64,000 nt of DNA from Eledone cirrhosa. Its lineage: Eukaryota. Positions 11,854 to 51,554 of the stretch are shown here, piece by piece. The notes under the pieces were generated by a model. That model was given only the letters and a program-made list of their open reading frames with translations. It was not told where the DNA came from and did not search any database. Each line of letters starts with the position of its first letter. Position 1 is the first letter of the stretch. The position numbers were made by a program, and so were the translations under genes. Location: positions 315,456,001 to 315,520,000 of the forward strand of contig OZ024742.1 in assembly GCA_964016885.1 (NCBI GenBank), given 5' to 3'.

Positions 11854-13101
11854 TCATACATACATTTGTATATATATTTAAATCTATTGCTACTCAGTTT
11901 CTTATTGTGTTGATCCTTTATACATATTTTTGTCGCCTGAAGGAGCAAACACAAGAAACTCTGAGAATGACCTAGTGATCATCAGCTTCAAATAAATAAA
12001 CTGTTAAATATATAGTACACTTCGTAGTCATATTCTGTGTGTATCTGATTTTAAATATATACACCATACCCTTGCATGTTGTAAGAAGTAACTAAAATGA
12101 TTGCCACCAGAAAGGAAATCTAGTTGTAAAATATTGCCTAAAAAATGACCCCATGATGAGTATGAAGCATGACATGGGGACTAGCAAGGCTAACTTCTGT
12201 TGTACCACCCTATATTTTGTTTTTATATTCTGACTCATGGTTAAGACAAATACTGATAACACAGTCTACTAAGTTGTAAATATGTAGCATAAATTGTGTC
12301 CCTGTGTGTAGAGAAATGAGGAACATACTGTATTTTCTTAAGAGAACATTGCTGAGCTCAAATCTTAATCACAAGTATAATTTAGTGAAAGAAGACTCCA
12401 TGTAACATTTGATCTAGAAACACTACATGAAGACAAAGCCTTCAATTGCACTTCTATGACACATTATTCTTTGCAATAAAAATATGCATGCATACAGTCT
12501 TTGTCTGGTATAATGTATGGTTTTACTAATATAATACTGTGAATAGCTGGTTTAGAATATGTACACCATATCCCAGCATGTTGTAAGAGGTGATTAAAAG
12601 GGTTGATCATAAAACAACTTCATGGTGAGTAAGATTACGCCTCCAAATTAAGTAAGATTAATCATAGTACCTCCAAAGATAACCCCCTACATTAGCAGGG
12701 AAATTGGTCTTAAAACACTTAGTGGTGTGTTGTGTTTTCTTACATAATCAGCCTTCTTCAGAACATGCTTGAATTGTCAGTGTCCTGATTTAAATTGTCA
12801 TATTCCAATGAATATATTGCGCATTTCCAACTACATACGGTATAACACACAATATAAAGATTGTATGATATTAAGTTACTATACAATATTTATTTTCACA
12901 ATATTTTCAGTAATATGAAATCAGTTTTTTTTTCCCTTTTATCTATGCAATAATTCTATTATTGGTAATGTCATAGACACTGTAAAAACAGACAGCATCA
13001 CAAACAAAACAGTACAGTCCAAATAAAATAACTATTTTAGCTACTATGTATTCAAATATTGAATATTTGTATGCATAGAGTTTACTTATCTTATTTCACA
13101 G

Positions 13102-13160
13102 AGTCAGAACAATAAAAGTTGGATGCCATCTGATGACATCAACTCATCCTGATCAAGTAG
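13102..13160 (+). CDS. Candidate exon of an unidentified plus-strand gene
   Basis: Good acceptor (ttacttatcttatttcacag) and donors at 13157 (gtaggt) or 13161 (gtaaat). Open frame VRTIKVGCHLMTSTHPDQV. No family recognised. Confidence 0.35.
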
Positions 13161-13265
13161 GTAAATTAATGTATATATATATATATTTTATCCTATATAT
13201 TTTTAAAAAAATAATATATAAGAAAAACATACACCTTGAATTATTGTATTCTTTGACACCGATTC

Positions 13266-13443
13266 TTAATCTTCTGATGAGATACAAACATATTTAAACA
13301 CATACTAGTGTAAAGTATAAATATTGTTCCTCATGATTGTATTATTATAATTAATATTATTGCCATTACTATTATTATGGGTTACGATTTGCCTAGTTAT
13401 GTGTTTAATGAAAATTTTGTGTTGAAACAATTGTAAAGATTAA
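13266..13443 (+). ncRNA. Type I hammerhead ribozyme motif (Penelope/retrozyme type) with extended stem II
   Basis: Stem I ttaatctt (13266-73) pairs with aagattaa (13436-43). Core CTGATGA at 13274-80. Stem II gatacaaa pairs with tttgtgtt and extends through aaacacatactag/ctagttatgtgttt. GAAA at 13424-27, palindromic stem III caattg, GTA cleavage triplet at 13433-35. Confidence 0.8.
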
Positions 13444-13625
13444 ATGATTTAAGAACTTCTGTCATAATTTGTTGTGTGTATCATCATCATCATCATCATC
13501 ATCATCATTTTACGTCCGCTTTTCCCTGCTTGCCGTGACACCTCCACGACCACTTTGCAGTGGAATGATAGGGACCCCAGTCCCTATCATCTCATTTCTA
13601 CAGCTGAGTAAACTGAAGCAATGTG

Positions 13626-13658
<33 letters not shown>

Positions 13659-22261: not shown

Positions 22262-22465
22262 TATAGAAATGACTTCTACATGACTAGAGCTGTTTTATTT
22301 GTAAAAATTCATCAGGAAAGACTTTCCTGATGATTTCTGATGAATGAAACACTTCTAACTCTGTAGAAGTCATTTCTATAATAAAATGAATATGCCTATA
22401 CTCTATTAACGTATTGAGTACCTTTTTTAACAGTGATTGCTTCCCGATTTACATCGGGATTCTAT
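22262..22465. mobile_element. Fold-back Penelope-like remnant with paired inverted hammerhead motifs
   Basis: Inverted arms centred near 22320. The + arm reads gactttc-CTGATGA-tttctgatgaat-GAAA-cacttctaactctg-TA-gaagtc. Tail carries tattgagtacc; flanked by (TA)n. Confidence 0.65.
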
Positions 22466-29367: not shown

Positions 29368-29505
29368 TTATATCCTTGTCTCCTGTGGATTACCAACTGT
29401 GAAATTTGGGTTTTCTATCGTCCTATTACGACTTTCTTCCTCTTCAGCTTTCTGAAACTTATTTGGACCCCATCCAGAAGTGTGTTTCAGCAGTTCTTTT
29501 ACTCT
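29368..29505 (-). CDS. SLC6 terminal coding exon 14 (C-terminus)
   Basis: ttcag|[48 protein letters not shown]; WGP motif typical of the SLC6 C-tail. Confidence 0.88.
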   Translation of the reverse strand, partial: RVKELLKHTSGWGPNKFQKAEEEESRNRTIENPNFTVGNPQETRI

Positions 29506-32500
29506 CTGAAAATAGATAAATAAATAAATAAATAGATAGATAAATGAATAAAACAAGAAAAATAAATCTTATAAATACCATATATACATTATAAACATAA
29601 ACTCATACATACATTCATACATACATATACCATGGAGGCACATGGCTTAGTGGTTAGAGCATTGGCCTTGCAATCGAAAGGTTGTGAGTTCAATTCTCAG
29701 ACCAGGTGATGTGTTGTTTCCTTGAGCAAGACACTTTATTTCACATTGCTCCAGTTTACTCAGCTGTAGAAACGAGATGATAGGGACTGGGGTCCCTATC
29801 ATTCCACTGCAAAGTGGTCGTGGAGGTGCCACGGCAAAAAAGCACCCAGTACTTGCTGTAAATGAGGTTGGTGTTAGTGCATCCAGCTATAGAAATCAAG
29901 CCAGAATCAGTTCCCGTCCCACCCTTGCAAGCAGGGAAAAAGCGGATGTAAAATGAAATGATGATAATGATGATGATACCACATATACATATAAACATAC
30001 ACTCATATATACATATATATATACCATATATTCAGATAAAGATAAACTCATATATACATATATATATATATAAACCATATATATACCATATATACAGATA
30101 AACAAAAACTCATATATACAAACAACATTCATTCCTCCATCCATGGGCCCTGAATTCCTGATGAAGTTGTAGGGGTGCCATTGTAATGTTTAGTGTGTGT
30201 GGGGCATTAAATTCTTAGGGAGATCATCTCTCTCCAGGTCTGACTAAAGCTGATTTCTTTCAGAAATATTTTTTCATGCCTAGAGTTGCTGAAGCATGGA
30301 ACAAACTACTTGCATTGCTTTCTGAAATTCGCCATCACTACACCTGATATTCCCCCTCCATACTCAAGCAACACATGTAACTGTGTATATATCATGACTC
30401 ATACACTGCTCACTTTCCTGACATCTGTACATTATTCTATGTACTATACATGCACCTTTGATGAGTTGTAGTGCACCTGAGCACTGTACATAATAATTTT
30501 CATTATTTTAAAGAGCGGTGGATTGGCAGTATCGGTAGAGGGTCGGACGCCATGCTTTGCCGCATAAAGTTACTGCCCTTGCCATTCTGAGTTCAAATCC
30601 CGCCGACGTTAAATTTGCCTTTCATCCTTACGAGGTCGATAAAATAAAGTACCAGTAATGCACTGGGTAATTTCTGGCCTTGTGCCAAAAAGTAGAAACA
30701 ATTATTTTAAAGAGAGGTGGAAAAAGAATTGACTACATTACGAAACTGGTATGTTATTTATCAACCTGGACAGGATGATAGACAAAGTTGATCTTGGAGA
30801 GATGTGATTTCAGAGCACAGAGACCTGAAACAAGTTAACAAGTTCTGCAAAGCATTGTATCCAACATTTTAATAACTCTGCCAACTTGCCACCTTATATA
30901 CAAACATATGTTCAAATATATATACATACACAGAGTCTATTTTCTAAAGTCGTTGGTGATAAGGGCATCAAGCTGTAAAAGCCATGGCAAAAACCAATAA
31001 GAAACAAATAGTTGGAAAGTAGAAGAGAGTGTTTAATCTCATCAGAAAAAACTTTTTTTTATCCCAGTGGCTTTAAAAATATACCTAATTCAGCCAATGG
31101 AAATAGAAAAAAAATATTCTCTGTGATTAAAACCCTACAAAATGCTATAGTTATTGTATTACAACCAGTTGTAACCATCATCATCGTCATCATTATCATC
31201 ACCAACATCATTTTCAATCTGTTTTTTTTTTTCATGCTAGCATGGTTTGGACAGGTTATTTATTACAGACTAAGTCATTACTCAATCAGAACTGCTGTCC
31301 TCCTAGTCTGACTGGAGGCAATACCCTGCTTTCAGTTTTTCTACAGGAGGATGCCCTTCCTAATGCCAACCAATTTATATGTGTAGTGAAACAGTTTGAA
31401 AGAAAGCTTACCTTTTTTAAAGGGAGGTCTCTGTGAGTTGTTAATAGTCTGAAAATAGCAATAATTACAATCATCATGATAGGTGTCATAGCCATTAGCC
31501 AACCTATAGCATTGGCCCAGCCAGGGTAGGTATATGTATCATATTTCAGAGGTTTATATTGGATAGCATTGAAGACCATCAAAAGCTGAAAAAAATATAG
31601 AGAAGAAATTTAGTTAAATACAATTTTAGAATTGTTTGTTTTCTGTCAAAACCTAACCCTAACTGTAATTTGTGATGATAACAAAATCACGGAATATTTT
31701 ATTAAGAAAATAGTGCTTTGTTTCAAAGCTACTACAATGTGAAATGGATCGTAAATGTTAAAAATATGATAACAATGACTTTGGTAGCTTTATAGATCCT
31801 TAAATTTCAGGATAAAATCCCTTAATCAAAATTTAATTAATAGAAGAAACTAGTTTCAGAGCTGTATACAGTTGTTAATTTGTTTTTGTAATTTTTTGTT
31901 AATATTTTTATTAATATTTTGGTCTAAGGGCAACACACATTAAAGCAATTAGAGTTACTAGAGATATCTCAGAAAAAAAATAGACATGAAACAATGTACA
32001 CTAATCAGATTAAATAAACTTTGTTGGTACTGTAAAGAATAGATATAATTGTTTCTACTTTTGGCATAAGGCCAGCAATTACCCAGTGCATTACTGGTAC
32101 TTTATTTTATCGACCCCGTAAGGATGAAAGGCAAAGTTAACCTTGGCGGGATTTGAACTCAGAATGGCAAGGGCCATAACTCTATGCGTCAAAGCATGGC
32201 GTCCGACCCTCTACCGATACTGCCAATCCACCGCCCTGTAAAGAATAGATATAATATTAACCCTTTAGCATTTAAACCAGCCATGTCCGGCCAGAATTAT
32301 CTCACGTTTTTCTGTTCAAACTGTCTTTAACTGGCCACTCATAGCGACGTTAAGATATTGTTCTCAAAATAAATTATGTCAAGATTCAATGTTATGTGGG
32401 ATAATTATGTAAGATAATGCCTTTACCATGAAGATACAATAGTAAATATAGAGTAATGTAAATGCTAAAGGGTTAAACAGTGATGATACGATTTCTATAG

Positions 32501-35500
32501 AGGCAAAGAAAAGCATACAAACCATCAATGTGGCTGGTGAGATATATTTCCAGAAGACGGTGAAATATTTATGGAAATTTCGGCTGCGTTGGCCAATCAT
32601 CAGTTCAACTTCAATGATAAACTCCTGAGCCCCTGTAAATGTAAAATCACAACCATGAGTATTGTCCTGATTGTATGATATATATTGGTGTATGTGGATG
32701 TGTTCATGTATGTGAATCTTCTATGTATACATCATCATCGTTTAACGTCCATCTTCCATGCTAGCATTGGTTTGGATGGTAATTTTCCCACTTGACGCAA
32801 GATTGGTTGTCTCGCTCGTATAGGACTGTCTGGCAGGTTTTCTACGGCTGGATGCCCTTTCTAACACCAATCACGTTTACAGTGTGGACTGGAAGGTTTT
32901 TACCGTGTTACCTACATGGCCACATGACATCGTGGACTGCGTGTTTTTTTGTCGTATGTGTGTATTCAGACTCAGGTGTACCAGGTGGCCGGGGATCTGA
33001 AAGATGACGATCCACGTCTGGTCGGGACAAAGCCAGAGGAAACTCTAGTGAAAGTCCATCATCATCATTTTACGTCCGCTTTTCCCTGCTTGCAAGGGTG
33101 GAGCGGGAACTGATTCTGGCTTGATTTCTACAGCTGGATGCCCTTCCTAACACCAACCTCATTTACACTAAGAGCTGGGTGCTTTTTTTTTTCCATGGCG
33201 CCTACATGTTCACTTTACAGTGGAATGATAGGGACCCCAGTCCTATCATATCATTTCTACAGCTGAGTAAACTGGAGCAATGTGAAATAAAGTGTCTTGC
33301 TCAAGGAAACAACACATCACCTGGTCTGAGAATTGAACTCACAACCTTTCGATTGCAAGGCCAATGCTCTAACCACTAAGCCATGTGCTTCCATCATATA
33401 TATATATACACACACACACACACCCTCACACACACATATATGAACAGGATGGGCCTTAAGTCGCGCACCAAAAGCATAAGCTGTTGTGCAAAATGTCAAC
33501 CTTTGGACTTCATCAATACATTAAACTTACAGATGATAGGATGATGAAAATGGTACATTGTTATTTCGATATAATGTTTGTTATTAATACAATACAATGT
33601 ACATGTATACTAAACTGTTTTCATTCATGCACAACTTACACCCCACCCTGTATATTGTTGGTAGGCTTGATATATAGAACAAGTAAACAAGTATTCAAAA
33701 AAAGCTCAATGCATGATGTGTAAATGATTTGAGACAAGAACACAGCAACCGAGTATAAATATTTGATTTCTTTATGAGTACTGTTCCATATGCTTGTTTC
33801 AATGTTAAACAATCTATGACTAGTGTATTTGCATACAAACGTGTGTGTGTGTGTATACAGGCATTTGGGCATGTATATATGACTGGTGCAATTGTAGAAC
33901 ACTATAAAGCTAAATCTACAGATAATTACCATGAACCCATCCAATGAGAATACATTCAATGATAGCCATTAGGAAAACAGCCCAACTGGCTGCATAAGAG
34001 TCCATCAACTGTAGAATATACATGCCACCCTAGAAGAGAAAAGAAGAAAAAATGTCTTTGTAATAAGGTTAAAGATAACATGTACAGGGGTTAATATCAG
34101 ATATTGTTATTAATGTTGAATAACCATCATTATTGGTGGTTTGGTAGTATCGGTAGAGAGTCGGACGCCATGCTTTGCAGCAAAGAGTTACGGCCCTTTA
34201 TGTTCAGAGTTCAAATCCCGCCGAGGTTAACTTTGCCTTTCATCCTTACGGGGTCGATAAAATAGTACCAGTAATACACTGGAATAATTGCTGGCCTTGT
34301 GCTAAAAGTAGAAACAATTATTATTTCTAACCAAAGGGCAGTGTATTGCCAGTATCGGTAGAGCGTCAGACAACATGCTTTGTGACATATAGTTATGTCA
34401 CTTTATGTTCTGAGTTCAAATCCCACTTTGCCTTTCATCCTTATGGGGGTCGTTAAAATAAAACACCAGTAATGCACTGGGGTCAATTTAATAAACTTTC
34501 CTCTCCCACAAAATTGTTGGCCTTGCACCTAAATCAAAAAACCATTATTTCTGATCAAATAATCTAAAGGCTTGGGAAAAAATAGACATAAAAATGGTAA
34601 TGATGATGATAATGACAGTGGTGGTCATAGTGATTGTGATGATATTAATCTAACAAAAGGTTACCTATTTCATGAGTCACAGGGATCCTTAAGAGTAGAA
34701 TGCAATTTCTACTTTCTGTAGCATTAAATAAACAAGAGACAAATCTTCCCTAATCCTCCAAAGAAAATACCTTCACCACTGCCACCACTATGCTAACCCA
34801 TTAACAATCCATTCATATCCAGTTTTTGGTCTTTAGGGTGCTGCGAGGTAGGCAACACCAGGCAATGTCTCACAGCCACTCTCCATGAATTTCTGTCCAT
34901 AGTATTGACATCGGCCAAGTTCCGTTTATACAAATCACTCTTCGCGCACTCCAACCACATCTTCCTTGGTCTGCTGTGATCTCTAGTGCCAGAGATTGCC
35001 AAGTGAGTGATTGAGTTGATGCATGACGTGGCTCGCTGTACATGTCCGTACCAACGGAGATGTTGTGTGCAAAGGACAACAGTGATCTCATCCACACCAG
35101 CTTCTGGTGGAGCACGGTCGAAGGGGCCTCATTTTTCAATTTAACACCACAGATCCACCTAACACCCCTTCCCCCCAAAAATAACCTACCTTCTACCAAA
35201 TCCCTACTGTTACATAAACAGATGATAGAATAAAGTAACCCATACAGAAATATAATCAAAGATTTGGAGCAGATTTCAACTCATTTTGCTTTAACAAAGT
35301 GTAAACCCCAAGAAAGATGGTTGGCTAACATCCATGAGCTGATTATGCTTGGGGATCCAGCCGGATCAGATGGAGACGGTTGCTTCTGACAGGACCCACT
35401 GGAAGGAGTGTTTGAAGACTTTGTCCCCACAACCCTCTTAGGAACAAGTGGGTGAAGAAAAAGAAGATGTAATAAAAGATTAAAACTTATAATTGATTTC

Positions 35501-38500
35501 TAATTTATACATAAGGCCAGCAAATTTGGGTGAAGTGCAAAATAGATTAAATCAAACTCTGTAATTACCAGGTAAATTATTTTATCGACCCCGGAAGGAT
35601 GAAAGGAAAAGTTGACCTTGGCAGGATTTGAACACTGAATGTCAAGTGCCAGAATAAATATCACAATATCACTTTATCCAAAGCTCTATTAATTCTGCCA
35701 AACCACCACCCTTAAAGCTTATAATTAAACACAAAAGCTTAAGAACAGAATAAATCCATTACTTACATCAGTACAAACTGTAAGACCAGATAAGAAACCA
35801 AGTATGCAGACTGTTAAAACAACCCATGTCTTTTTCTGCCGTAAAACTGGATACAGATCCTGTACAGCAGTCATAATAGTTTCCAAGAGAGCAAACTGAA
35901 AAACAGAGTATTAAAGAAATTAAAGAAACATTTACATATATACATATGCAAAATTGAGAATGTGTGTGCGTTTTAAAGTGCAAATGAGAAAAGGAGTGTT
36001 GAAGCCATAAAAACAATGCCAAAAGACAGAACACATGAGGAAGACTTGGTCATCTGACCAGTCTAGTCACAAAATGTGATGTCTAACCCAATGCATAGTC
36101 ATTTAGCAGTGATAGAGATGATATGCTCTCACCTACATCCCCAATTTACTTTCCATATCCAGCCTATGCCTGCATGGAAAGACAGGAATGCCCAACAATA
36201 CATTGCTAGACACCCTGATACAACTCCCTCTCTTCAAGGCCATCTCCATGACCCCAACACTTGCTCTTTGACTGTGGGATGACCTTCTTCCTTGGCAAGT
36301 AATATGTAACACCCCGCTCTTATTTTATACCTACATTCTCATCACTGCCTCCTCAGCCTTGGCCAAGGACACAACAAGCATCCTAATGATGTAACGAGGT
36401 AGTTCTGGTGCCATGATAAAATGCACTCAATCTATTCTGTAAAGTGGTAGTGCAGGTGTCTTGATAAAAAACACCTTGCCTACTCTGTTACCATAAAATG
36501 TACACAGCCTACTCTGTAAAGTGATATTGCTAGTACCATGACAAAACAGACGCAGACTACTCTGTAAAGTGATATTGCTGGTATTATGACAAAATATACC
36601 CGGACTATTTTATAATGATGTAGTACTAGTACCACAATAAAATACACCCAATCCACACTATAAGGTTGTAATGTTGATGCCTCAACAAAAAGCACCCAGT
36701 TTAATACTAAAAGAAATTGTTATGAAATTTAATTTAAAAAACATCCTTTTAAATTAATGAAATGTATTGTGACAAAACATATTTCTAAATAACATAATAA
36801 AAATCTAAGAGAAAATTACTCACTTCACTGCCCATTCCGAGAGTCAACAACATGAAGAAGAAGAGGAAAGACCATAAAGGAGATATAGGTAACCTGGTTA
36901 CAACATCAGGGTACACAATAAATGCTAGACCAGCACCTGGAAAGATTGAAAGTAGAAGTTTGAATAAATGAATAAAGAAAGATGAGATTTCTCCATTGAC
37001 ATGCATGTGTGTGTTAATATCTATGTTTACATGTCTTTGTGTGTTTAAGCATTTTAACCCTTTAGTATTTATATTACTCTGTGTTTACTATTGTATTTTC
37101 ACTGTAAAGGTTTTACTTACATAATTATCTCACATAATATCAAAGCTACAAGATTTTGATGATATTCTTTTGAGAACAATACCTTAACCCTTTAGCATTC
37201 AAACTGGCCGTATCCGGCCAGAATTCTCTCACCTCTTTCTTTTTCAAACTGACCATAACCAGCTGTTCATACTGATGTTAAGGTATGTTATTAAAATAAA
37301 TAATATCAAAATCTCATAGATTCGATATTATGTGAGATAATTAGGTGAGATAATTTATGTATATAAATCCAGCAAAAACCTATCTATTTAATCAGTCATC
37401 AGTGATTCATTGATTATATAAAAGTGAAAACACATAATATATTGCATCAGTATTTTTCTACATCCATATTGTTTAACCCTTTAGCATTTAAACCAGCTGT
37501 ATCCAGCCAGAATTCTCTCACCTCTTTCTGTTTAAACTGGCCATAACCAGCTGCTCATTCTTATGTATTGTTCTCAAAATAAATAATATCAAAATTGCAT
37601 AGATTCGATTTTATGTGAAAATATAATAGTATATATAGAGTAATGTAAATGCTAAAGGGTTTAACCCTTTTGATACTAAACTACCAGAAAAGACCTCTGG
37701 TTCTAAAATACAAAACTGTTTGCCAGAAGTCTTTATATTTATCTAAAACCATCCATCATAATTTTTTGTTAAGTTATGTTTCAAACACCAACTTAATAAT
37801 GGTAAAGTTTGTTATATTATTATACTAAATCCAAACAATTTCTTGGTTGTTTTCAAAATTATTTAATAATTAAAGGCAGTGCCTTTTACTAGGAAGCCAA
37901 CAAAAGAGTGAAATTTTTTGTTGGTTCATGGCCCTGATGGACATGATTTATGCCAACCATACCACACCCATTAGAATCCCATTCTCAAAGATACACAGTG
38001 CTTTCATCTAATACATTAGGTTTTGATAATCTCTTGACCTTTGATCACACAAAATAATACTTATGACAAAAACATGACAATCAACAGAAGTAACAATAAT
38101 AAATGAAGATATACTGACCCTGGTCAACAACTTTATTAACAGGCATATCCAGTTCATTTGCCATGTAACCAATAATGGCAAATATAACAAAACCAGCGAA
38201 AATGCTGGTACAGATGTTGCCAATTGATACAATCAATGCATCTCTGAAGGAAATAAAACAGAAAATGCCATTGTTAAATTCTGAATATTTGATACAGAGA
38301 TAAACAAGATACATTAGGTTTGTATAAGTACACATGCTTATGCACACACACATACACAAAGAAACACATGCAGGGTTGGATTAAGACCTTCAGGGGTCCA
38401 GGACACCTCATGTTTTTTTTTTCTTTTCTTTCTTTTTGGTGTGTGTGTGGGGGGGGGGGGGGGGGGTCTCTCTCATACACAGAAAGTTAGAATACACAGC

Positions 38501-41500
38501 AAACCTCCCCAATTTCACATATCAAAGTATCAAAGTTAGCTTGGAGCAAGTAATTAGAATTGAAAATGAATACTTGCTTCAAGTATTAAATTTAAAAATT
38601 TTAACTATCCTAAAATAAAAAACCCAGCTGAAAGCACATTGCTGATCGGGCCTCCACTTCAGAGGGCCTGAAACAATTGCAACCTTCCCCCCCCCCCTTA
38701 CATCTGCAACTACACACACATATACAAAACTCAAACCTATTCATAAACACAAACACATATTGAAACACACATACACAACACAAGGTAACTAATACACACC
38801 TTAGTATATAAAACCAATCAGGTTTGTATAAGCACATGTAAATACACACACACACACAATTCACTGAAATGATAACTGACACATACATATGTGCATGCAT
38901 ATATATACTAGATATACAATTATTTATGTACATGTATATGTGTGTACCTATGAAAAGTCATGAATTTGTGAAGAAAGACCAACACTTATAAATGGATATC
39001 TACAGTCATGCGTCTTCACAAAATACTTAGGTCTCACCAAGATATGAACTCGGATCACTGGATTCAAAGTTCAGAGTGTTAACCATTACACATACGGTAG
39101 TATACTTACTTATAACAGTTATTATGGAACTTGTTATAACTGGCAAGTGTTATCAGTCCACCCCAGGCTGGACTGAGTGAGAAAAATATTTGCACGGCTG
39201 CTTCTTTCCATACCTGTAATGCATAAAAAGTATATAATAGTTAAAAATGGTGTAACAGCATATTGTTTGGACTACAATACCAAAATCATTTACTTCATCC
39301 TTTCTTCTAACTTACTCCCCACAATAATACAACAATAACCCTTTAGCATTTAAACCGGCCGTATCCAGTCAGAATTCTCTCACCTTTTTCTGTTCAAACC
39401 AGCCATAACCGGCTGCTCATACTGTTGTTAAGGTATAGTTCTCAAAATGAATAATATCAAAATCTCGTACATTCTATATTATGTGAGATAAAGTGTTTAC
39501 CGTGAAAATACAATAGTAAATATAGAGTAACATAAATGCTAAAGATTTAAGGCCATTCCCTAGCTAAACCAGAGTTGGCCTCGAGGACACCATAACAAGC
39601 TTCTCTATTTTGCTCTTTACTTTAACCCCCCCCCACCTCCAAATTCAAAATAATAAGGCTCATCCCTCAGTCGTAATAAAGAATATATACATACATATAC
39701 TGTAGCCAAATGTGAATCATATATGCAAGGTTATACATTTGTGAAAATGCTAGAAATATAGGAAATGAAATTAAACTGACCTTGGCAGATTTTAATAAGT
39801 GGAACTCTGGCGTGACATAAAATATAATTCCTTCCAATGAACCAGGTAACGTCACACCACGGACAAACAAGATACAAAGTACAACATATGGGAACAATGC
39901 AGTAAAATACACCACCTGTGAAAGGAATTTAAAATAAAGATGATTTTCTTTTTTGTGTTATATGGCTATATATTCTGTATTATTTCAACAATAGAGCAAT
40001 TATTATTTTTATCAATTTGGCCCACATCATAATCATCTGTGCTGACTGGAAGACATAAAGGAAGTAAAGAAAGAAAGGATATAAAACAAAGAATTAAAAA
40101 TGATGAAGGAAAACAACAAGCATCTTAAGGATCCGATGATAAGCTTCTCCAATTTACCCTATTTTCTGCATTCTACCTCACCAAACTTCTGGCTTTCATT
40201 TCCTCATTTATCAATTTTAGCCATGTACTTCTTGGTCTTCACCTTCCTCTATTTCCTTCCACTTCACTCATCCTTCCTCAACACATGACCTAGTCATCTC
40301 ATTCCATTTATCATATAACATACATCACTATTTTTATTCCCATTATCCTTTACAATTCATTGTTTATCTACATCTCTCTGAACAATACTCCACTCATCCA
40401 CCAAACCATTTTCATTTCCATTCTTTCCATCCTTCTCTGCTGCTCCACATTCATCACCCATACCTTGCTCCCATAAAACATTACACTTCTCACACATGCA
40501 GCATATATATTCCCCCTCAGTTCCAGTGACAATTCCCTCTTAATTAGCACATCACTCAATTCCTGAACTTTTTCCCAGTGTGTATCACTCTAGTCACCAA
40601 TGCCAAGGTCCAAGTCACCTTCGTGTCTCCTAGGTACAAAACATTTTCTAAGAAAGAAAAATATATAAAAAAGACAGCAAGAAAAGTAGGAAGAAAAAGA
40701 AGAATTATATACACAGGGTGTTTAAAAAAAAAATTGGATATTATTTCAGGTGTAAATATCCCAGAAACTACCAAGTTTTAGTCAATGAGACTAAGCCAGC
40801 TTAATGTTGAGCAACATAAGATTTATTCCTCAAATTTTGTCAACATTATGACACTAATTCACAATATATATATAGTGGTAGTTTCTGGGGTATTTACATC
40901 TCAAATTATATCTAATTTTTTAAAACATTCTGTATATAAATAAAATGCAACACAAAAATAGTGAACCCAACTTACTTTTCCAGTTGATTTCACTCCTTTA
41001 CTGAGAGATAAAAATGTCAAAGTCCACGCACCGAAAAGAGACAGGACAACTCGCCATCTGATATCACCTAAGTGTTCAATACCAGAAGATATGTTTAAGA
41101 CATGGCGCCTGCAATTGCAATGTTAAGCATTAATAGTAAACATTCTCTATGTATATATGTATGTGGGTTGAATGGGTATGCATATGGAGTTTTTTAAACA
41201 GCAGAGAAATAAATAAAGTTAAACAGTGAGAGACAGAAGTATCTTGATTACATAGATTTTATTTATAGTACACCATATCTCTGCATGTCATCAAAGGCAA
41301 TTAAAAGGGTTGGCACCAGGAAGGGCATATAGATAAAAACATTGTCCCAAAAAGGACCTCATGATGAGTATGACATCTATCATGGGGCCTACAAAGCTAA
41401 CCTCTGCTTTATCAAGAAAAATGATCCTAAAACACTTCATGTTGTATAGTTCAATGAATAGCATGCACCCAACAAATCTTAATACACTACAAAACCCCAT

Positions 41501-42956
41501 AATCCTGTAACCCTCTCAAATGGAAACTCAAATTAGATGACAAATTGGCAGAGTTATTAGAGCAAAAGACAGAATGCCTTATGAATATCTGTCTGGCTCT
41601 TTGTTTATTCTTTTCACTGAGCAGTACTGAATGAAGGGGCAGTGCCCATGGTCTTCACATGCCCGCTAAGACAAGATAAATCAATCACATTGATGTTCTG
41701 TTTAAATTGTTACAGGGTTTCACATTTGAGGAAGACATGAGTAGGAATGAAGTTCCAGAAGGCCAAGGTTCTGAGAAGGAAGGACTGGGTATAGTGGTTA
41801 GTGCAGGGCTTACAGCTGGGAGACATGACATGGGTAATGGAAGGAGGAAAAGTGACTAAATTGGGAGAGCCTTATTAATGGCATAACTTCAGCAAGCCCT
41901 AAAGAGCAAAAACCATTGTAGTAACAATAGAAGGAGCAGGGGAAGGAGTCAATACATTTGAAGAGCGGAAGCTGGAGAATGTTTGGAATTTATGCCTGAA
42001 AACCTTGGTAAGTTGGTGTGAATGTGATTGGAGGAAAGAGCTGAAAAAGGAAAGAATTGAAAAAGGAATTTGTTAGAACTTGCTATACTTACTCGAAAAA
42101 GTCTTGCGCTGGAACGTGTCGTATAGATACATTTTTGGCGAGTTCTACTATGTTTTCTGATGCAGCGTACGTTGCATTATAGCATGTTTGATTGTAAAAT
42201 ACACTGCCATTAATTTTGGTACAAGCGTCTGCGTCTTTGTAAGAATAGCAGTCTGAGACAGAGAGAGATAGAGAAAATAATAATAACAGTAATGATTTCT
42301 GATTTAGACACAAAGCCAACAAGTTGGGGGAAAAGGAAAGTCGATTAAATCAACTCCAGTGCATTACTGGTACTTTATTTATCGACCCCGTAAGGATGAA
42401 AGGCAAAGCTAACCTTGGTGAGATTTGAACTCAGAACGTTAGGGCCCATCACTCTATGCCACTAAGCATACTCTACCAATTGACTAATGACAGAATGAGA
42501 GAGGACTGTCAGTGCTTCGTTCATTTTGCCATTGTCTTTTGCCCATATCTTTTATTTATTTTGTATGATTTAAGCCACCTAGGACTTTTTTTTTTTTTTT
42601 ATTTATATACAGTTTACCCTCGACATTCGCAGTTCCAGTTATTCGTGGGATTTTCCTTAGAACCTAACTAATAATTGTTTGTGGAATTCACTGTATATTC
42701 GCAGAATCATAAATATCTACTGCAATATTTTTATGGCTTTCTTCGTGACAATATACATTTTTTAATGCTAAATTATTAATAACAATTTACCATATTTGCC
42801 GGCCTATTGCACGCACCTTTTTTTAAATTTTTTTTTTATTTTTATTATATTTTGACATTTATAGGCATTTTTGTGGACCACATCAAATATTCGCAGTTTT
42901 GTACTCTTAGCAAGTACTCTAGGAATGTAACCTCTACAAATACCGGGGGACAAGTG

Positions 42957-42990
<34 letters not shown>

Positions 42991-45900
42991 CATGTGTATG
43001 AAAGATTCTTTCACTTACATTGTGTTTTCCATTCATCTCCACAAGTTTCCCAAGGTAGTTCCGATGTAAAAGACATAAACAGGTACAGAATAGTCCAGGC
43101 TATGATTACTGTGTAATAGACAGCTACTAGACTTGATACACATATCATGGCAATACCAAGACCTAGGCAATAGGAACAGTAGTAGTGGTGGTGGTGGTGG
43201 TGGTGGTGGTGGTGGTGGTAATGGTGGTGGTGATAGTGGTGGTAATGGTGGTGGTGGTAGTAGCAGTGGTAGTGGTGGTGGTGGTGGTAAGGATGTTGGT
43301 GATAGTGGTGGTAATGGTGGTGGTGGTAATGGTGGTAGTAGTAGTGGTGGTGGTGGTAGTAGTGGTGGTGGTGGTGGTGGTGGTGGTGGTGGTAAGGATG
43401 TTGGTGATAGTGGTGGTAATGGTGGTGGCGGTAATGGTGGTAGTAGTAGTGGTGGTGGTGGTAGTAGTGGTGGTGGTGGTGGTAAGGATGTTGGTGATAG
43501 TGGTGGTAATGGTGGTGGTGGTAGTAGTAGTGGTGGTGGTAAGGATGTTGGTGATAGTGGTGGTAATGGTGGTGGTAGTAGTAGTAGTGGTGGTGGTGGT
43601 AAGGATGTTGGTGATAGTGGTGGTAATGGTGGTGGTGGTAGTAGTAGTGGTGGTGGTGGTGGTGGTAAGGATGTGGGTGATAGTGGTGGTAGTAGTGGTG
43701 GTGGTGGTGGTGGTAAAGATGTTGGTGATAGTGGTGGTAATGGTGGTGGTAGTAGTGGTGGTGGTGGTGTGGTTAATGGTAAAGAATATATTTAATATCA
43801 TAGTAGTAACGATGGTGATGTTAATGATGGTGGCAGTGTTTATAATTATCAGTGTTGTGGTGGTAATGGTAGTGGTAGTGATGGCCATGATAGTTGTAGT
43901 TGCCACCACAGTTATGGTCATTGTTGTTAATGTTATTGTTGTTGTGATGTTGGTAGTGGCAGTGGTGGTGGTGGTGGTGGTGGTGGCAGTGGCAGGTAGT
44001 GGTTGTAATGATTGTGAAGACAGTGGTAATGGATGGTGGTGGTTATGGTGGTAGAGGTTATAATTGTTGTCATAATTTGTTTGTGACAAGGGTGTTGGTT
44101 AAAGTTTTTTCAGTTGGGAGGTGGTATTGATGGTGGGTGGAGTTGATTTTAATGTTGGGAACAGAGGTAAATAGGTAGAGAGGGAGAGAGAGAGAGAGAG
44201 AAAGAGAGAGAAAGAATGAATTAATAAAAGAATACAAATAGTAATACTTAATAACAATACAAGAGGTAATCAAAAAGCAGTAATGAGATCTAGATTCAAC
44301 AACACAATAACTAATCTTTTAACCCTTTAACATTTAAACCGGCCATATCTGGCCAGAATTCTCTCACCTCTTTCTGTTCAAACCAGCCGTAACTGGCAAC
44401 TCATACTGACATTAAGATATTGTTCTCAAAATAAATAATATCAAAATCTCGTAGATTCGATATTATGTGAGAATTAAATGTTTACCATGAAAATATAATA
44501 GTAAATATAGAGTAAAGGCCATTCCCTAGCTAAAGCCAGAGTTAGCCTTGAGGACACCATGACAAGCTTCTCTATTTTGCTCTTTACCTTACACACCCTC
44601 CCCCCATACTCAGCAATCCCTTGGCTTTCATTTCCAAGAAACAGAAAGAAGTGTTTTGACCTCCATCATTTTGGACACCAAATATGTCAGTTGTTTGAAC
44701 AACAAACAGCCAGCTCAGGAAATTAAGGCACAAATGGTTGAGCATTCTATAAACATATCTAGTCTTAACATAGTTCTCAGTGATATATGGTGGGACAAGG
44801 TTGGCCTTTTAAATTACAGGTACAACTCATTTTGCCAGCTGTGTTGACTGAAGCAACATGAAATAAAATGTCTTGCTCAAGGAGACAGGGCATCGTTGGG
44901 AATCAAAGTCACAACCTTACAATCATAGGCCAAATACCCTAACCACTAAGCCACAACGTTTCTGGAAAGATAAAACAGTAAACAAGCAGATGCTAACACA
45001 AACAGAAACACACACACACACATCCTATAGAGCATCCAGAGAAAGGTCACTTGAGACTGATATGTATCTTTATCCTCATTATACTTATTCCCATATACAC
45101 CAAACTTATCATACCATCATCATCATAATAACTGCAATAACAGTAACATCTTTATTGTGTAAAATTGTCAAAAGTTAGAATATAAAATGTACTTACCATG
45201 AAATAAAGGACAGAATCGGTCAAAGATGGCAGCTGGACCAAGGGATGCAAATTGACCAAAGGCAAGCTCCATGAACATTAATGGTGTTCCAATTAATATT
45301 AACATCAAAATAAAAGGAAAAAGGAAGGCCCCTAAAGAGAAGATACAGACACAGAATGAGATTGAGAAGAGAGAAAAGGTAAAAGAAAGAGGTGTAATAA
45401 GAAAAAGACTGATGGAAGTGATGATCAAAATGTGTTGTAAGGATTGTAATTTTAAACATTTCATAAAACAAATTATCATGACAAGAGAAGGGGTGAGTTC
45501 TGATATTTCAGCTTTTTTTTTTTTTTTGATAATTTGAAATGAAATGTGAATCAGTTGTGTGGCACCCTGGGCATGTGTCTTTTACTATAGCCTTAGATAG
45601 ACCAATGCAGATCTGCCAACCTCTAAAAACACAAACAGGGAATACCATGAAAAAAAAGTGCCCCAAAACGGAGATTTTACATAATTATTTCTACTTTTGG
45701 CACAGGGCCAGCAAATATCCCAGTGCATTACTGGTACTTCATTTTATCGACTCCGTAAGGATGAAAGGCAAAGTTCGTAAAGGGCCGTAACTCTATGAAG
45801 CAAAGCATGGCGTCCGACCCTCTACCGATACTGCCAATCCACCACCCTTGGGGAGATTTTACATAATCAAAGCTATACCCATTTTCACAAGAGAAGTCAT

Positions 45901-47292
45901 CTCTCACCCACCCTAAAAGTGGGTGGGGGATCTCCCCGTTGGACGGGGAGAGTTGACAGATCTACCAATGTGCTGTGAATGGAATTAGGTAGACAGAAAG
46001 TGCAGAAGTCTGTTGTGTGTGAAAGACCAATGTTAAACGATAAGTATGTGCATGTTCCTACCTATGTTTACATTTGTATTGTTTCTGTATTTATGTCCTG
46101 CAGGTCCAGAAAAAATGGATCACTAAAATAAGTACCAGATATTGCACAACTTAAATGGACCACTTTGGCTGTGTCCAATTTTGTATAATATATAAATAGG
46201 GGTATCATTTAATAATAGATATTGAAATAAGAAAATAAAAATATCTTATTTCACATTCTCTGCTCATATGTATCTATATGTAGCTATTTAACTATATACA
46301 TATTATCATCATCATCATCACTGTCTATTTTTCCAATGCATACATACTAGTCAATGAGAGAGCCCTAAAGCTAACCCTAACTCTAACATCAACCTTAATG
46401 AACTCTCGCTCTATCTATAAAAATAACCCTAACAAACACTAACTTTAAACCTTAAGTGTATATATATGCAATGAATCCAGTGAATCAGACAAGATATTTT
46501 CATTTTCTTATTTGAAGATATATTGTCAAAGATTCCCATAAATATATATAAGCTTTAATATCCGTGTGGAAAAAAATAGATAGTTATTCTTTCTCTAATG
46601 AAAGTCTAAGAAAACTAATCAAAATAATTCCAAATTTCCTGCCTGTGAAGAGATACATAAACCTCTGATCTAACCACTTTGCTTACTTTTCACAAGGCTA
46701 AAATAGAATGTTTCTAAAAAAAAAAAATATGAATACCTAACGTTACATTTCACGTGTATAAGCAGATATGTGCATGTTGTTTAGTCCCAGGTCAGTCCTG
46801 AATGAGCAAATCTAAGATCAAAGATCATGCCAGCCACGATCATCTTATCTTTTATTCAGACACATTTATCTATTATCCAATAATTCCTTGAGATTTTTAT
46901 AAAGATAGTAAGTTATGATTTGAGGGAAATTTAGCTGCTGTTTCTAATAATAGTTCGAACGACCAAGAAAGGCTCTTCGTTGGCGAATTGTGTATATACA
47001 TAGCCTATATGTAAATATCAATGCACAATACATATAAAGGGAAATAATAAAAAAGAGATAGAGTGGGAAATAAACTTGAGTCCAAGGGAGATAACTTACC
47101 ACCTCCATTGCTGTATGCTAGGTAGGGAAACCGCCATACGTTGCCGAGTCCAACTGAATAGCCCAATAGGGACATAAGGAAATCGAATCGTCCACTCCAG
47201 TTTCCCCGTTCCACGAGACCATCTCCACCATCATCGTCCAACTGCGTAAGAACTGCACTACTGGAAACATCTTCAGCAAGTGATGACGGCGT
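29368..47292 (-). CDS. SLC6 sodium- and chloride-dependent glycine transporter-like gene (GlyT1/GlyT2, SLC6A9/SLC6A5 group); 14 coding exons, 5' end not found
   Basis: Fourteen GT-AG exons with compatible phases (193+135+144+160+133+135+104+125+113+129+100+110+174+138 = 1893 nt) give one uninterrupted frame. It carries SLC6 motifs [76 protein letters not shown] and WGP. The TM6 W(GG) is typical of GlyTs. Confidence 0.95.
29632..29977 (+). mobile_element. tRNA-derived SINE family B with RTE-like tail
   Basis: A box tggcttagtggttagag, B box gagttcaattc, core ccttgagcaagacact; 3' end matches the RTE tail (acccttgcaagcagggaaaaagcggatgtaaaa...gat). Confidence 0.88.
30250..30505 (+). mobile_element. 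CR1-like LINE 3' end
   Basis: [13 protein letters not shown] followed by 3' UTR ...gttgtagtgcacctgagcactgtac. Confidence 0.7.
30514..30703 (+). mobile_element. tRNA-derived SINE family A (young copy)
   Basis: A box tggcagtatcggtagag, B box gagttcaaatccc, body tttgcctttcatccttac...gtcgataaaataaagtaccag; TSD-like attattttaaagag on both sides. More copies near 6790, 14330, 17600, 18840, 23030, 23750, 24290, 25600, 30720, 34132, 34335, 35490 and 42290. Confidence 0.9.
31412..31585 (-). CDS. SLC6 exon 13 (TM12)
   Basis: ttcag|[58 protein letters not shown]|gtaagc. Confidence 0.93.
32050..32235 (-). mobile_element. SINE family A with 20-bp TSD
   Basis: Direct repeat ctgtaaagaatagatataat at 32030-32049 and 32236-32255. 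Confidence 0.92.
32261..32472 (+). mobile_element. piggyBac-type MITE family 1
   Basis: TTAA-flanked with intact TIRs; 50 bp from the exon 12 donor. Confidence 0.88.
32523..32632 (-). CDS. SLC6 exon 12 (TM11)
   Basis: tacag|(G)[36 protein letters not shown]|gtttgt. Confidence 0.93.
33057..33394 (-). mobile_element. SINE family B, inverted near-identical copy
   Basis: Reverse complement of 29632-29977; a partial copy also lies at 13481-13630. Confidence 0.88.
33930..34029 (-). CDS. SLC6 exon 11 (TM10)
   Basis: tctag|[34 protein letters not shown]|gtaatt. Confidence 0.95.
34795..35160 (-). mobile_element. RTE-like LINE 3' fragment
   Basis: LRWYGHVQR...[10 protein letters not shown]...DRNSWRVAV. 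Confidence 0.8.
35767..35895 (-). CDS. SLC6 exon 10 (TM8 end, TM9)
   Basis: ttcag|[43 protein letters not shown]|gtaagt. Confidence 0.95.
36405..36700. repeat. ~52-bp degenerate tandem repeat
   Basis: About 5-6 copies of aaaatgcacccag...tactctgtaaagtgatattgctagtaccatgac, resembling an internal SINE segment. Confidence 0.6.
36824..36936 (-). CDS. SLC6 exon 9 (EL4, TM8)
   Basis: tccag|(G)[37 protein letters not shown]|gtgagt. Confidence 0.95.
37058..37908. mobile_element. Cluster of nested and tandem TTAA MITEs
   Basis: Family 1 copies at 37058 (-), 37188 (+, starting at an internal TTAA) and 37477-37659 (+), abutted by a family 2 copy (CCCTTTTGATAC) from 37665. Confidence 0.82.
38119..38243 (-). 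CDS. SLC6 exon 8 (TM7)
   Basis: ttcag|[42 protein letters not shown]|gtcagt; TM7 Asn and Ser of the Na1/Cl site retained. Confidence 0.95.
39110..39213 (-). CDS. SLC6 exon 7 (TM6)
   Basis: tacag|[34 protein letters not shown](K)|gtaagt. Confidence 0.95.
39339..39546 (+). mobile_element. piggyBac-type MITE family 1
   Basis: Same TIR and body. Confidence 0.82.
39781..39915 (-). CDS. SLC6 exon 6 (TM5)
   Basis: cacag|[45 protein letters not shown]|gtcagt. Confidence 0.95.
40200..40580 (-). mobile_element. Old RTE-like LINE fragment
   Basis: [17 protein letters not shown]...[11 protein letters not shown]. Confidence 0.75.
40713..40932. mobile_element. Tc1/mariner-type MITE
   Basis: ~60-bp imperfect TIRs cagggtgtttaaaaaa...cccagaaactacca / tggtagtttctgggg...aaacattctg. 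Confidence 0.72.
40976..41108 (-). CDS. SLC6 exon 5 (TM4)
   Basis: tgcag|[44 protein letters not shown]|gtaagt. Confidence 0.95.
41690..42070 (-). mobile_element. CR1/Jockey-like LINE 3' fragment
   Basis: [17 protein letters not shown], the C-terminal motif. Confidence 0.55.
42093..42252 (-). CDS. SLC6 exon 4 (EL2)
   Basis: ctcag|(Y)[52 protein letters not shown](E)|gtaagt; N-glycosylation sequons NGS, NQT, NAT, NVS. Confidence 0.92.
42610..42956. mobile_element. Tigger/pogo-like MITE
   Basis: TA|cagtttaccctcgacattcgcag ... ctacaaataccgggggacaagtg|TA, MER2/Tigger-like termini. Confidence 0.65.
43019..43162 (-). CDS. SLC6 exon 3 (TM3, start of EL2)
   Basis: cctag|(G)[47 protein letters not shown]|gtaagt, 144 nt; absent from the ORF track, read manually. 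Confidence 0.95.
43178..44060. repeat. (GGT)n-based G-rich minisatellite
   Basis: Recurring ~55-110-bp unit ggtaaggatgttggtgatagtggtggtaat(ggt)n(agt)n, decaying after about 43770. Confidence 0.95.
44323..44514 (+). mobile_element. piggyBac-type MITE family 1
   Basis: Same 5' TIR and body, 3' end lost. Confidence 0.8.
45197..45331 (-). CDS. SLC6 exon 2 (TM2)
   Basis: tttag|(G)[45 protein letters not shown]|gtaagt, 135 nt. Confidence 0.95.
45686..45851 (-). mobile_element. SINE family A (internally deleted) with TSD
   Basis: TSD ggagattttacataat at 45670-45685 and 45852-45867. Confidence 0.88.
47100..47292 (-). CDS. SLC6 exon 1 of those found (N-terminus, TM1)
   Basis: ctaacag|[65 protein letters not shown]|gtaagt; acceptor position inferred. 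Confidence 0.9.
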
Positions 47293-49202
47293 CTGTTAGC
47301 GACAATGAAATACAAAATAACACTTAGACAATTCGAAATATATGTAAATATAATTTATCTGAATTTCTGTAATGAGGAATTATTATAAAAACAATTCATT
47401 CTTACTAGTATTCTCCCTTGGTTATTATAATCAAACTATTTTAGATGGTGCACTGGGAGAAAGCCAGAAAGTACAGTGTCCAAAACGTAATTATATTAAA
47501 CTAGGTGACGATACTAAAACGAATAAATCAGCGTGTATGTATATATATATATATAGTAATAATAAATACAAAAACCCAAATCCGAAGAGGGCTCGATGAG
47601 GATTGAATATAAAAAATATATATAGGTCCGTAGAGCAAATATTTATTATTCGTACAGGTTTTAAAGTTTAAACAACGAATTTCTGCTTTCACCCAAAACA
47701 GGATCTTCTGAAACTTTAATCTGTACTAATAATAAATATATATATATATATATAAGTTCTACAACAAAAAGCCACTACAATGTGGTAGAAATATATAAAG
47801 AGCAAACGATGACAAATAAAACAAAACAAAGTAATGTTTCGACCAGTATATTTCAACCCTTACAGGGTGAGCCAGGTGCTACCAATACGACCACCTCATA
47901 GTGTGGGCTGGGTGCGTTTTGTTGTGCATGTTCAAGATGCTATATATGTCGATGTTTTGCACAAGGCATACATAAAATTCGCTAGAGGTTGTAAAAACTC
48001 AGAAAAAAAATAACTGAAGAGGTCAGTTAGTTTTATTCTTTACATTAAATGATGTAGTTTCATGTGGTACAGGACATTAAAAGTTTTGCAGCTTTTTTTT
48101 GTAATTTTTAAAACCGCATACTTTCAGAACTGCACTATTTGGAAATGTGTAAGATGGCATATGGTGTTTATGTTGCATGTAAATAATGTATGTGTGCATA
48201 AAGTTAATGAGAGTGAAAGTTAATATCTGCAGAGGAGCATCTGTTGTTGAAACTGAGAGCAAGTATGTTCTTCATGTAAAGCAGAACTGGAGGGGATGGG
48301 GAAGGATATAAATAAACCTTGGGGTAGACCAGATTTGATAGAAAGAGCTCCATCAGCACATGCTGAAATACTGTAGTCTGAGAAGAAACTACTGAAGCAA
48401 AGGAATTGAAAGAAAGAAGGAAATCACATAACTAGTTTGATTCCTTGTAGCAGCCACCGCTAGCAACATCTTTTTCTGTCTCTAAGGGTCTTCACGTGAT
48501 GTAAGCTATTTTATAGCAACTGACTGTAATAGTAGTTATTTTATTTTATATATATATATGAATAAAGTTAGTCAGTGATCTTCCAACCTTCATTGGTATT
48601 TCATTGTTTTGAAATACCAATGAAGGTTGGAAGATCACTGATGAAGGACTAACTTTATTCATATGTAACCCATTTGCAACCACGCAGCACGTTTGTTTTT
48701 ATATATATATATATATATAATGAAGGAATTGTGGTAAGGAACCAGATGGACCATAATGCACCAAAGTACTCAATACTTAAGGTACTAGAGTGGGTAATAG
48801 GAACAAGTATGACTCCGACGACCGAGCTCAAGCCGTTTCTGGACTAAATAAGAATTTTTAGCCTGGTAAATAAATAGCCGAATTTCTCAGGGGGTATTTC
48901 CTTATATGGGAAGATAGTAATTGTCAAAAGGATTGGTCAAACATTTGTTGTAAAGACTGATGAATCTATCATGGCATTTGGTGGAAGGTAGGGGTGGCTG
49001 AACTTGCATAGAACAAGGAGGCAGTGGGGGAAACCCAGTCAAGCGTTGAAAGTGAAATCTATACAGCAGATTCTAAGGATAGTGTATAAAAGGTCGAAAA
49101 AAGTGTACTGGAGAAGAGGAGGGGGGTGAAAGAATAGGTAAATCGAAAGGGAGTAAAAAAAAAACCATTATAAAAATAAGGAAATAAATATATTAAAAAA
49201 TT

Positions 49203-49444
49203 TAGTTCTTTAGAAGCTATTTTTATATTAAATTTATATATATATATATATATAAATTTAATATAAAAATAGCTTCTAAAGAACTAGAACTGTTTCATTC
49301 AGGAGAAATCATCAGGAAGCCCTGATTTCTCCCGAATAAAACAGTTCTAGTCCTGTAGAAGCTATGATATTTCTATATTAAATATTTATACTCTGCTATG
49401 TATTGAGTACCTTACTTACTGTGGTTACCCTCGATTGAACCCAG
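49203..49444. mobile_element. Third copy of the fold-back hammerhead element, with an extra palindrome
   Basis: Minus strand 49320-49272 reads gcttc-CTGATGA-tttctcctgaat-GAAA-cagttctagttctt-TA-gaagc. An inverted degenerate partner lies at 49321-49362, followed by the tattgagtacc tail. Confidence 0.65.
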
Positions 49445-50777
49445 GTACAACAGATGCCCTTTTCTTAGTGAGGCAACTACAAGAGAGGTTCTTAGAGAAG
49501 AATAAGCAACTATACTTAGCTTTTGTTGACCTAGCGAAGGCCTTTGATAGGATACTCTGATCTGTCATCTGGTGGTCCCTAAGGAAACTAGGTGTAGACG
49601 AATGGCTTGTGAGGACAGTGCAAGCTATGTGCAGGGGGTGCTGTCAGTAAAGTGAGAATGGGAATGGAGTTTAGTGAGGAATTGCAGATACAAGTAGGTG
49701 TACATCAAGGTTCGGTCCTCAGCCCGCTCTTGTTCATTATAGTCCACCAAGCCATAACAGAGGAGTTTAAGACTGGATGCCCATGGGAACTTCTCTATGC
49801 TGATGATCTGGTTCTTATAGCAGAATCAGTAGAGGAGCTAGAGAATAAATTATGGCTATGGAAACAGCAGTTGGAATCAAGAGGCCTGAGAGTGAACATA
49901 GCTAAGACAAAAGTGTTGATAAGTAGAAGAGAGGACAATACTCTGATTCCATCAGGGAAATGGCCATGCTCAATATGTAGGAAAGGAACTTGCATAAATT
50001 CCATAAAATGTACACAATGCAGATCTTGGGTACACAAGAGATGTAGTGGGATAGCAGGCAAACTAACAGGTAGGGAAAACTACATATGCAGTAGATGTAC
50101 AGGGAAAGTTGGCAGTAGTAATCGCTGTGATAGACTCATTTTTCCAATGCAGGTGGGTTCTATAGAAGTGCTTGATAGCTTCCGGTACCTAGGTGATCAG
50201 ATTAGCATGGGAGGGGGTGTTCCGAGGCCATAGTATCTAGAATAAGGATGGGTTGGAAGAAGTTTAGGGAGCTGCTTCCTCTATTAACAAAGAAGGGTAC
50301 AAAAGGACAGTTATATGATGCCTGTGTGAGATGCGTGATACTGCATGGTAGTGAGACATGGGCAGCAACTGTAGAAGATATGCGATAGCTGGAGAGAAAT
50401 GAAGCAAGTATGCTCCGTTGGATGTGCAACGTCAATGTGTGTGAACGACCAAGCATAGATGAGTTGAGAAAGAAACTGGGTATAAGAGGGATAAGTTGTG
50501 GTATGCAGGAGAGAAGGCTGAGATGGTATGGACATGTTATGCGCATGGAGGGTGACCGCTGGGTAAAGTGCCAAGAAATGCCAGTAGAAGGAAGATGCAG
50601 TAGAGGTAGACCAGGAAAAACATGGGCGGAGGTGGTGAGAGAAGACCTCAGATCATTGAAACTCACTGAGGAGATGACGAAGGACTGTGACAAGTGGAGA
50701 GATGCTGTGCTGAATGGGACCCGTCCAACCCTTGCAAGCAGAGAAAGGCGGATATAAAATGATGATGATGATGATGA
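49445..50777 (+). mobile_element. RTE-clade LINE, 5'-truncated and frameshifted
   Basis: GTTDALFLVRQLQE...AFVDLAKAFDR, GVHQGSVLSPLLF, LYADD, PHD-like Cys cluster, RRLRWYGHVMR, RGRPGKTW; 3' tail acccttgcaagc...(GAT)n. Confidence 0.93.
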
Positions 50778-50995
50778 TATATATATATATATAGTTCACT
50801 CAGCTGTAGAAATGAGTTTACCCAGCTATGGGTTAAATAGTCTCACCAACCTGCAATTGGCCAGGCGTGGTAAGTATGGCTACAACCTTACAACCTTGAC
50901 ATGACCAAAACCAAAATAGAAAAATGGTGGAGGTCAATCAGGGAGGGGTTCCTCCGGGAGGAGTGAAAAGGCCCTGGATTGAATATATATATATA

Positions 50996-51461: not shown

Positions 51462-51554
<93 letters not shown>

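Follow-up and report, generated by a model that had tools for sequence, protein, structure and literature searches.

A type I hammerhead motif with an unusually long stem II in Eledone cirrhosa, probably carried by the 3' end of an old Penelope-like element

We found that the motif at positions 13266-13443 of a 64,000-nt stretch of Eledone cirrhosa DNA (contig OZ024742.1, positions 315,456,001 to 315,520,000; hereafter the window) is, as judged from its sequence, a genuine type I hammerhead with an unusually long stem II, for which cleavage is predicted. Very probably, it is a copy of an old repeat of about 480 bp, likely the 3' end (pseudo-LTR, pLTR, plus tail) of a Penelope-like element (PLE) or a non-autonomous derivative of one, in which a 143-nt stem II is family-wide and the ribozyme is a passenger. 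It is the architecture of the family that makes its PLE membership likely, the search for a linked ORF having been negative (see below). The parts of the motif are as follows.

13266-13273 and 13436-13443, plus strand: stem I, 8 Watson-Crick pairs, with 89% of cells paired across 22 copies
13274-13280, plus strand: core C3-A9 (CUGAUGA), in which N7 varies between subfamilies and U4C occurs in one
13281-13423, plus strand: extended stem II and distal loop, a span of 143 nt between the core halves, (ATT)n-rich in its distal part
13281-13288 and 13416-13423, plus strand: stem IIa, 8 pairs, 2 of them wobble, including the first pair G10.1.U11.1
13294-13308 and 13393-13408, plus strand: stem IIb, a second helix of 15 pairs
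13424-13427, plus strand: GAAA, the 3' half of the core
C13428-G13433 around AAUU, plus strand: palindromic stem III, only 1-2 bp as a monomer
13434 (U16.1) and 13435 (A17), plus strand: GUA site, with predicted cleavage after 13435

The core parts, stem I and cleavage site listed in a preliminary description of this DNA were thus confirmed by the sequence and by an RNA descriptor, and its estimate of about 140 nt for stem II compares well with the measured 143 nt. The conserved core (C3-A9, G12-A14, A15.1-U16.1 and H17) is complete and in order, and it is surrounded by three helices with an open stem I. When the motif was folded in isolation, stems I and II were favored, with a predicted pair probability of 0.95. 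The first pair of stem II is G.U in the window copy and G-C in 8 of the 22 copies, G10.1-C11.1 being the conserved pair at this place according to the structural descriptions in PMC4209133 and PMC3088659.

A type I descriptor allowing spacings of up to 200 nt, applied to both strands, matched only this motif in the window, leaving the minus strand without a hammerhead, and gave no match at three stringencies in 100 dinucleotide shuffles of positions 1-42000. Furthermore, the folding stability of the motif had a z score of -2.70, with only 2 of 200 shuffles equally stable. Because of these results, we do not regard the motif as a product of chance. The Rfam hammerhead models matched neither the window motif nor the compact relative described below. 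Additionally, contigs from three runs of one sample, possibly the assembled one, did not differ by a single letter over 12900-13436. The stem III palindrome has a computed self-duplex energy of -8.4 kcal/mol, and the assignment to a Penelope-type hammerhead whose palindromic stem III is suited to dimers was upheld.

The layout around the motif is that of a head-to-head insertion.

13172-13187, no strand: (TA)n tract, the insertion target as read from the sequence
13188-13243, minus strand: inverted arm, made up of the final ~56 nt of the 3' tail of the element itself, directed away from the forward copy and aligning to the tails of L004, L005, L013 and L024
about 13249-13475, plus strand: forward arm, a copy of the ~480-bp repeat that is truncated at its 5' side and stops near the shorter of the two 3' ends (+50)
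13480-13630, no strand: (CAT)n tract together with a short repeat of very high copy number, adjoining the 3' end of the element

The forward arm lacks the long tail found in other copies. It had been supposed that relatives near the motif had decayed, but a covariance model of the family detected no second copy in the window, and the other CUGAUGA motifs there are parts of other remnants. Among these, a small head-to-head CUGAUGA pair at 22307-22350 is likely the decayed inverted end of another PLE.

A search of the E. cirrhosa genome with the window copy returned at least 45 matches with 74-92% identity (the best 40 of 145 candidates were scored), and further searches brought the number to 97 loci, which collapse to 64 distinct places with 74-88% identity. 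The repeat is about 480 bp long and low in GC (24%). In a set picked for reaching the 5' end, 16 copies start within about 15 nt of one point. The repeat has two 3' ends, roughly 50 and 215 nt past the cleavage site, which usually abut (TA)n; in a set biased by tail queries, 16 of 31 copies continue into a tail of ~165 nt and most others stop near +50. Head-to-head inverted arms were found by script at 9 of 64 places, or at 8 of 64, the window copy included, after dropping L029/L146, whose inverted-arm match lies in another element. The family thus combines dispersed, 5'-truncated copies having fixed 3' ends with a 5'-truncated inverted arm and an optional tail, as expected of a PLE end. Inverted arms, optional tails and (TA)n targets are given as marks of PLEs in sections 6 and 11 of PMC8557442, and hammerheads in pLTRs and in opposite-strand pairs are attributed to PLEs in the relevant part of PMC4209133. 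The ~165-nt tail is longer than the 30-40 bp described for PLE tails.

We found neither a linked reverse transcriptase and GIY-YIG ORF nor a partial tandem for the long-stem family, and seven PLE proteins compared with all element loci and with 20 longer flanks revealed no parent ORF upstream of any copy. Similarly, only simple-repeat matches linked the family to the top 30 GIY-YIG loci among the matches listed. Several other candidates were discarded. An ORF stopping inside the core has a frame of about 30 codons that is not conserved in all copies and has no protein match. A Naiad origin was rejected since three motif words are absent from the sequences in the PMC8557442 supplement, as far as these go, the cephalopod Naiads having been compared by their displayed ends. 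A fixed 5' boundary of a second PLE family proved to be a query artifact. As a separate observation, the 5' start of the repeat and the 3' end of another, highly abundant PLE with a GIY-YIG remnant meet head to head at L205:802-1265 and L215:4587-4838, that is, in 2 of 20 longer flanks; none of 24 other copies of the abundant PLE adjoins the ~480-bp repeat. These joins could reflect co-insertion of two RNAs or nested insertion.

The genome is rich in PLEs. A first look for GIY-YIG domains gave 10,596 candidates, of which 150 were scored, and the top 30 were mostly Neptune-like. Protein P0001 had no Pfam or PDB match. When 20 PLE-rich stretches and 30 GIY-YIG loci were scanned, hammerhead-like motifs with stem II spans of 13-91 nt were recovered. 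One of the elements, L192 (G000:C2:338109000-338116000), is a young full-length PLE. Copies of its family, including L191, are 97-100% identical, and the family has therefore been recently active. L192 consists of a pLTR, an intact ORF of 832 amino acids that links reverse transcriptase and GIY-YIG, a 1.45-kb 3' UTR, a second pLTR with tail and an inverted pLTR. The ORF carries the motifs RWR, DKT, CxCX5C and CxxC/CxH, as does the Hydra clade in section 11 of PMC8557442, and the Atlas clusters closest to it consist of cnidarian PLE-type proteins. By its sequence, L192 is thus likely a Hydra-clade PLE. The (TA)n target of this clade is also seen in the long-stem family, and its ORF motifs (RWK, DKT, CxCX5C) were seen only in L192.

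The hammerhead of L192 is compact: stem II measures 20 nt, the core is of the U4C type and stem III is palindromic. The element terminates either at +50 or at about +205, and its tail corresponds to the 5' UTR of the ORF. L192 and the long-stem family have the same two ends and the same inverted arm. We next compared their sequences by shuffling, leaving out the window row, whose anchor was unchecked and whose copy has no tail. For four of five long-stem copies, only 0-2 of 300 shuffles equaled the alignment with the downstream part of L192, as against 43 of 300 for the fifth, L035. Upstream of the core, 259 and 197 of 300 shuffles were as good as the alignments to long-stem copies. From this layout and the weak, AT-rich similarity, we infer that the long-stem family may be the end of an older L192-type element in which loop II expanded.

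It is possible, though we consider it clearly less probable, that the repeat is instead of retrozyme type, i.e., a non-coding unit of ~480 nt processed by its ribozyme into circular RNA and borrowing PLE enzymes. This would account for the defined 5' start of the 16 copies and for the failure to find an ORF, and the unit length is near the 170-400 nt given for animal retrozymes in the part of PMC7229834 that describes them. The short non-coding repeat, type I hammerhead and low GC are likewise shared with the animal non-LTR retrozymes of that account. However, at none of the 30 places that reach the tail end does another unit follow, and the one apparent tandem, a repeat on C12, was rejected because it is a local duplication containing other sequence; circular units were not found either. 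Moreover, the usual contact between loops 1 and 2, which belongs to the geometry of the retrozymes as described there, is impossible in the long-stem family, and both its PLE-style inverted arms and its layout match a true PLE end, that of L192.

For a PLE end, the proposed mechanism is as follows. The PLE protein would nick a (TA)n tract and prime reverse transcription on both strands. Reverse transcription from two internal start sites of an uncleaved RNA would then produce the two arms, in the window an inverted arm with its end at the tail and a forward arm that stops about 50 nt beyond the ribozyme. The two 3' ends would follow from two internal starts, as for Poseidon PAc of Anolis, for which the experiments in PMC11167929 that concern us report two internal starts giving two 3' ends, an uncleaved template and a protein-assisted hammerhead, and in which cleavage was dispensable for insertion in vitro. 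In Poseidon PAc, according to the same account, the ORF begins inside the hammerhead and the tail is short, in contrast to the ~165-nt tail of the long-stem family, for which no ORF was found. Active ancestors may have maintained an intact ribozyme, which likely cut element RNA with the help of dimerization or of a protein, and loop II could have grown by AT-rich expansion on a rigid hairpin that holds the core halves together. The window copy would then most likely be a neutrally decaying passenger, causing little or no cleavage of host RNA.

The history of stem II was followed in 22 aligned copies out of 31 with both halves, the other 9 being omitted because they have large insertions or deletions or lack the 5' core. 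Across these copies 86.5% of the stem cells pair, as against 30-46% for slid-partner controls, in a test that used the structure taken from the window copy. The long stem II is therefore, on sequence grounds, ancestral and common to the whole family and not special to the window site. Divergence from the majority was 10.6% in the core and 11.3% in the stems, compared with 20.3% at other positions, and the changes fixed in subfamilies sit on N7, loops, an internal mismatch and one compensatory pair. This last change, C-G to U-A at 13299/13403, is present in 7 of the 22 copies as one inherited event. In shuffle control (a), most measures were reached by 36-382 of 500 shuffles, i.e., were not exceeded, and cells with a change on both sides, taken by themselves, by 3 of 500. 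RNAalifold did not recover the structure from the decayed copies and gave no consensus. Because of both results, the support from covariation is thin. Of the check suggested earlier, copy number was thus borne out, the family being multi-copy, and covariation came down to the one inherited event.

Position 11.1-12 reads CG, TG or CA depending on the copy, a pattern typical of CpG decay; the ancestral pair was therefore likely G10.1-C11.1, and the window copy likely lost C11.1 in this way. One subfamily likely had a U4C core ancestrally. The core is intact in 6 of the 22 aligned copies. In insertion L004, G5A is found in both arms, which suggests that loss of core function did not prevent copying and agrees with the dispensability of cleavage for insertion in vitro (PMC11167929). 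Repeated insertion of a common short repeat into the (ATT)n loop of stem II has split the ribozyme in L033, L037, L081, L101 and L115.

We further weighed the idea that the window copy was domesticated and now cuts an unannotated plus-strand RNA including an upstream exon, or defines the 3' end of this RNA, an idea that we regard as very improbable. Just as improbable is its extended form, in which the copy is kept by selection, the upstream pairing described below serves as an off-switch and very-long-stem-II PLE hammerheads are more broadly active and missed by screens. In their favor, the window copy is among the best kept of the 22, and arguably the best. Compared with the majority of the others, it differs at 0 of 69 core and stem sites and at 10 of 91 elsewhere (naive p = 0.005), as selection would also produce, but it was the query, was chosen for intactness and had the stems defined on it, and its loss of C11.1 is masked by a tie. 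About 6 of the 10 loop differences are subfamily polymorphisms and only about 4 are private. Counted by hand, one change (C11.1 to U) was inferred against about 3 expected in 69 sites, which is unremarkable (Poisson p ~0.2), and L008 and L032 are about as complete. The statement that this copy had kept its pairing therefore stands insofar as it is well preserved, with the reservations that it lost C11.1, that its intact core is shared with other copies and that it was selected for study.

The upstream exon is the following candidate.

13102-13160, plus strand: candidate exon of the preliminary description, 59 nt, bounded by AG and GT, with one frame open by eye

Its canonical-looking AG|GT donor at 13161 indeed lies 105 nt upstream of the motif, as had been noted. 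However, the candidate exon has a 58-nt match (81% identity, E = 2.6e-6) to G000:C1:126017777-126017838, which follows a broken frame without a Pfam match that resembles a non-LTR restriction-like endonuclease, the motif in this frame being one that we take to be of this type. The candidate is thus likely a 3'-end fragment of an unrelated non-LTR retroelement. Crude scans of the window and of the 100 kb upstream, one heuristic of which missed the candidate exon itself, revealed no plus-strand host gene among the output listed. The exons of an SLC6 (Pfam SNF) neurotransmitter transporter lie at 29368-42252 on the minus strand, about 16 kb from the motif, and the last one found stops near 29370. 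The part of the window at 42000-62000 is a long, strongly skewed tract of 43% GC, probably a satellite array.

The predicted fold was also analyzed in its flanks. There, the active fold lay 2.4-3.8 kcal/mol above the MFE, and with at least 36 nt of upstream flank the probability of stem I fell to 0.01 or less in one folding analysis and to 0.01-0.45 in another, as the strand with the cleavage site paired with 13245-13258 instead. The same competition is predicted in L002, L008 and L011 and is absent in L032 and L003. Of the possibility that a more stable fold disrupts the stems, it can be said that the isolated motif favors stems I and II but that in its flanks stem I is predicted to be outcompeted and the active fold disfavored. 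Additionally, no second copy lies nearby in the window for a dimer, and monomeric PLE hammerheads show no or low cleavage in the assays of PMC4209133 considered here. The proposal that the motif cuts a pre-mRNA or affects the choice of last exon thus received no support, with a retroelement match for an exon, no plus-strand gene found and a disfavored flanked fold. Regulation of a neighboring gene is not supported, and the window hammerhead is probably not such a device because its long arm is common to a whole family of old, scattered fragments. A role as a host regulator would be important but is not what the evidence indicates; among transposon features, the motif is a modest addition.

Finally, it is most improbable that the motif is a fold-back or chance artifact of an AT-rich repeat that never was a ribozyme: the GC content of 24%, the missing Rfam match and the missing RNAalifold consensus would fit, but the shuffles gave no descriptor matches, the variable core position is N7, 8 of 22 copies have a CpG at 11.1-12 and with it the canonical pair, and position and stem III palindrome are as in the compact hammerhead of an intact PLE.

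Taken as a PLE hammerhead, the motif resembles the minimal pLTR hammerheads described for metazoan PLEs in PMC4209133 in its core, short palindromic stem III and long proximal helix II, as well as in its single dispersed copies, opposite-strand pairs and ancestral G10.1-C11.1. Unlike those treated in that account, it has a 143-nt stem II with a second 15-bp helix, a stem I of 8 bp rather than 4-5 bp and no extra nucleotide between A9 and G10.1. It shares with the Hydra-clade PLE hammerheads, as presented in the pertinent sections of PMC8557442, the (TA)n target, a position near the 3' end, a G.U in helix II and the palindromic stem III. In the Hydra rows of File S2 of that paper, by contrast, loop 2 measures 3-10 nt, the longest in the table being ~35 nt (PLE-X1), and the long-stem family is without a linked ORF.

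The Clec2 hammerhead is a split form. Hammerheads of host genes (in the Clec2 3' UTR and in introns of RECK and C10orf118) are alike in having core halves far apart or residing in host transcripts, but in the descriptions drawn from PMC2837043 and PMC3088659 they are low-copy, conserved and in known transcripts, whereas the window copy belongs to a decaying repeat and has no known host RNA.

Our search of the open literature turned up no account of a stem II as long as this one. The stem II of PLE hammerheads can exceed the tabulated lengths several-fold, and such forms are missed by Rfam models and by descriptors with short spacers; no fully canonical copy with a spacing of 110-140 nt was recovered by exact pattern. 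If long-stem PLE hammerheads were active, some elements scored as lacking a hammerhead may carry one. The compact young family and the elongated old one offer a natural test of how much loop II length is tolerated in PLE hammerheads. In the scan of PLE-rich loci, candidate hammerhead-like motifs with a palindromic stem III were seen at L122:7589(-), L138:2697(-) and L124:6200 and 6659(+), with stem II spans of 91, 81 and 50 nt. Since such spans occur in these loci, hammerhead counts are likely underestimates in such genomes.
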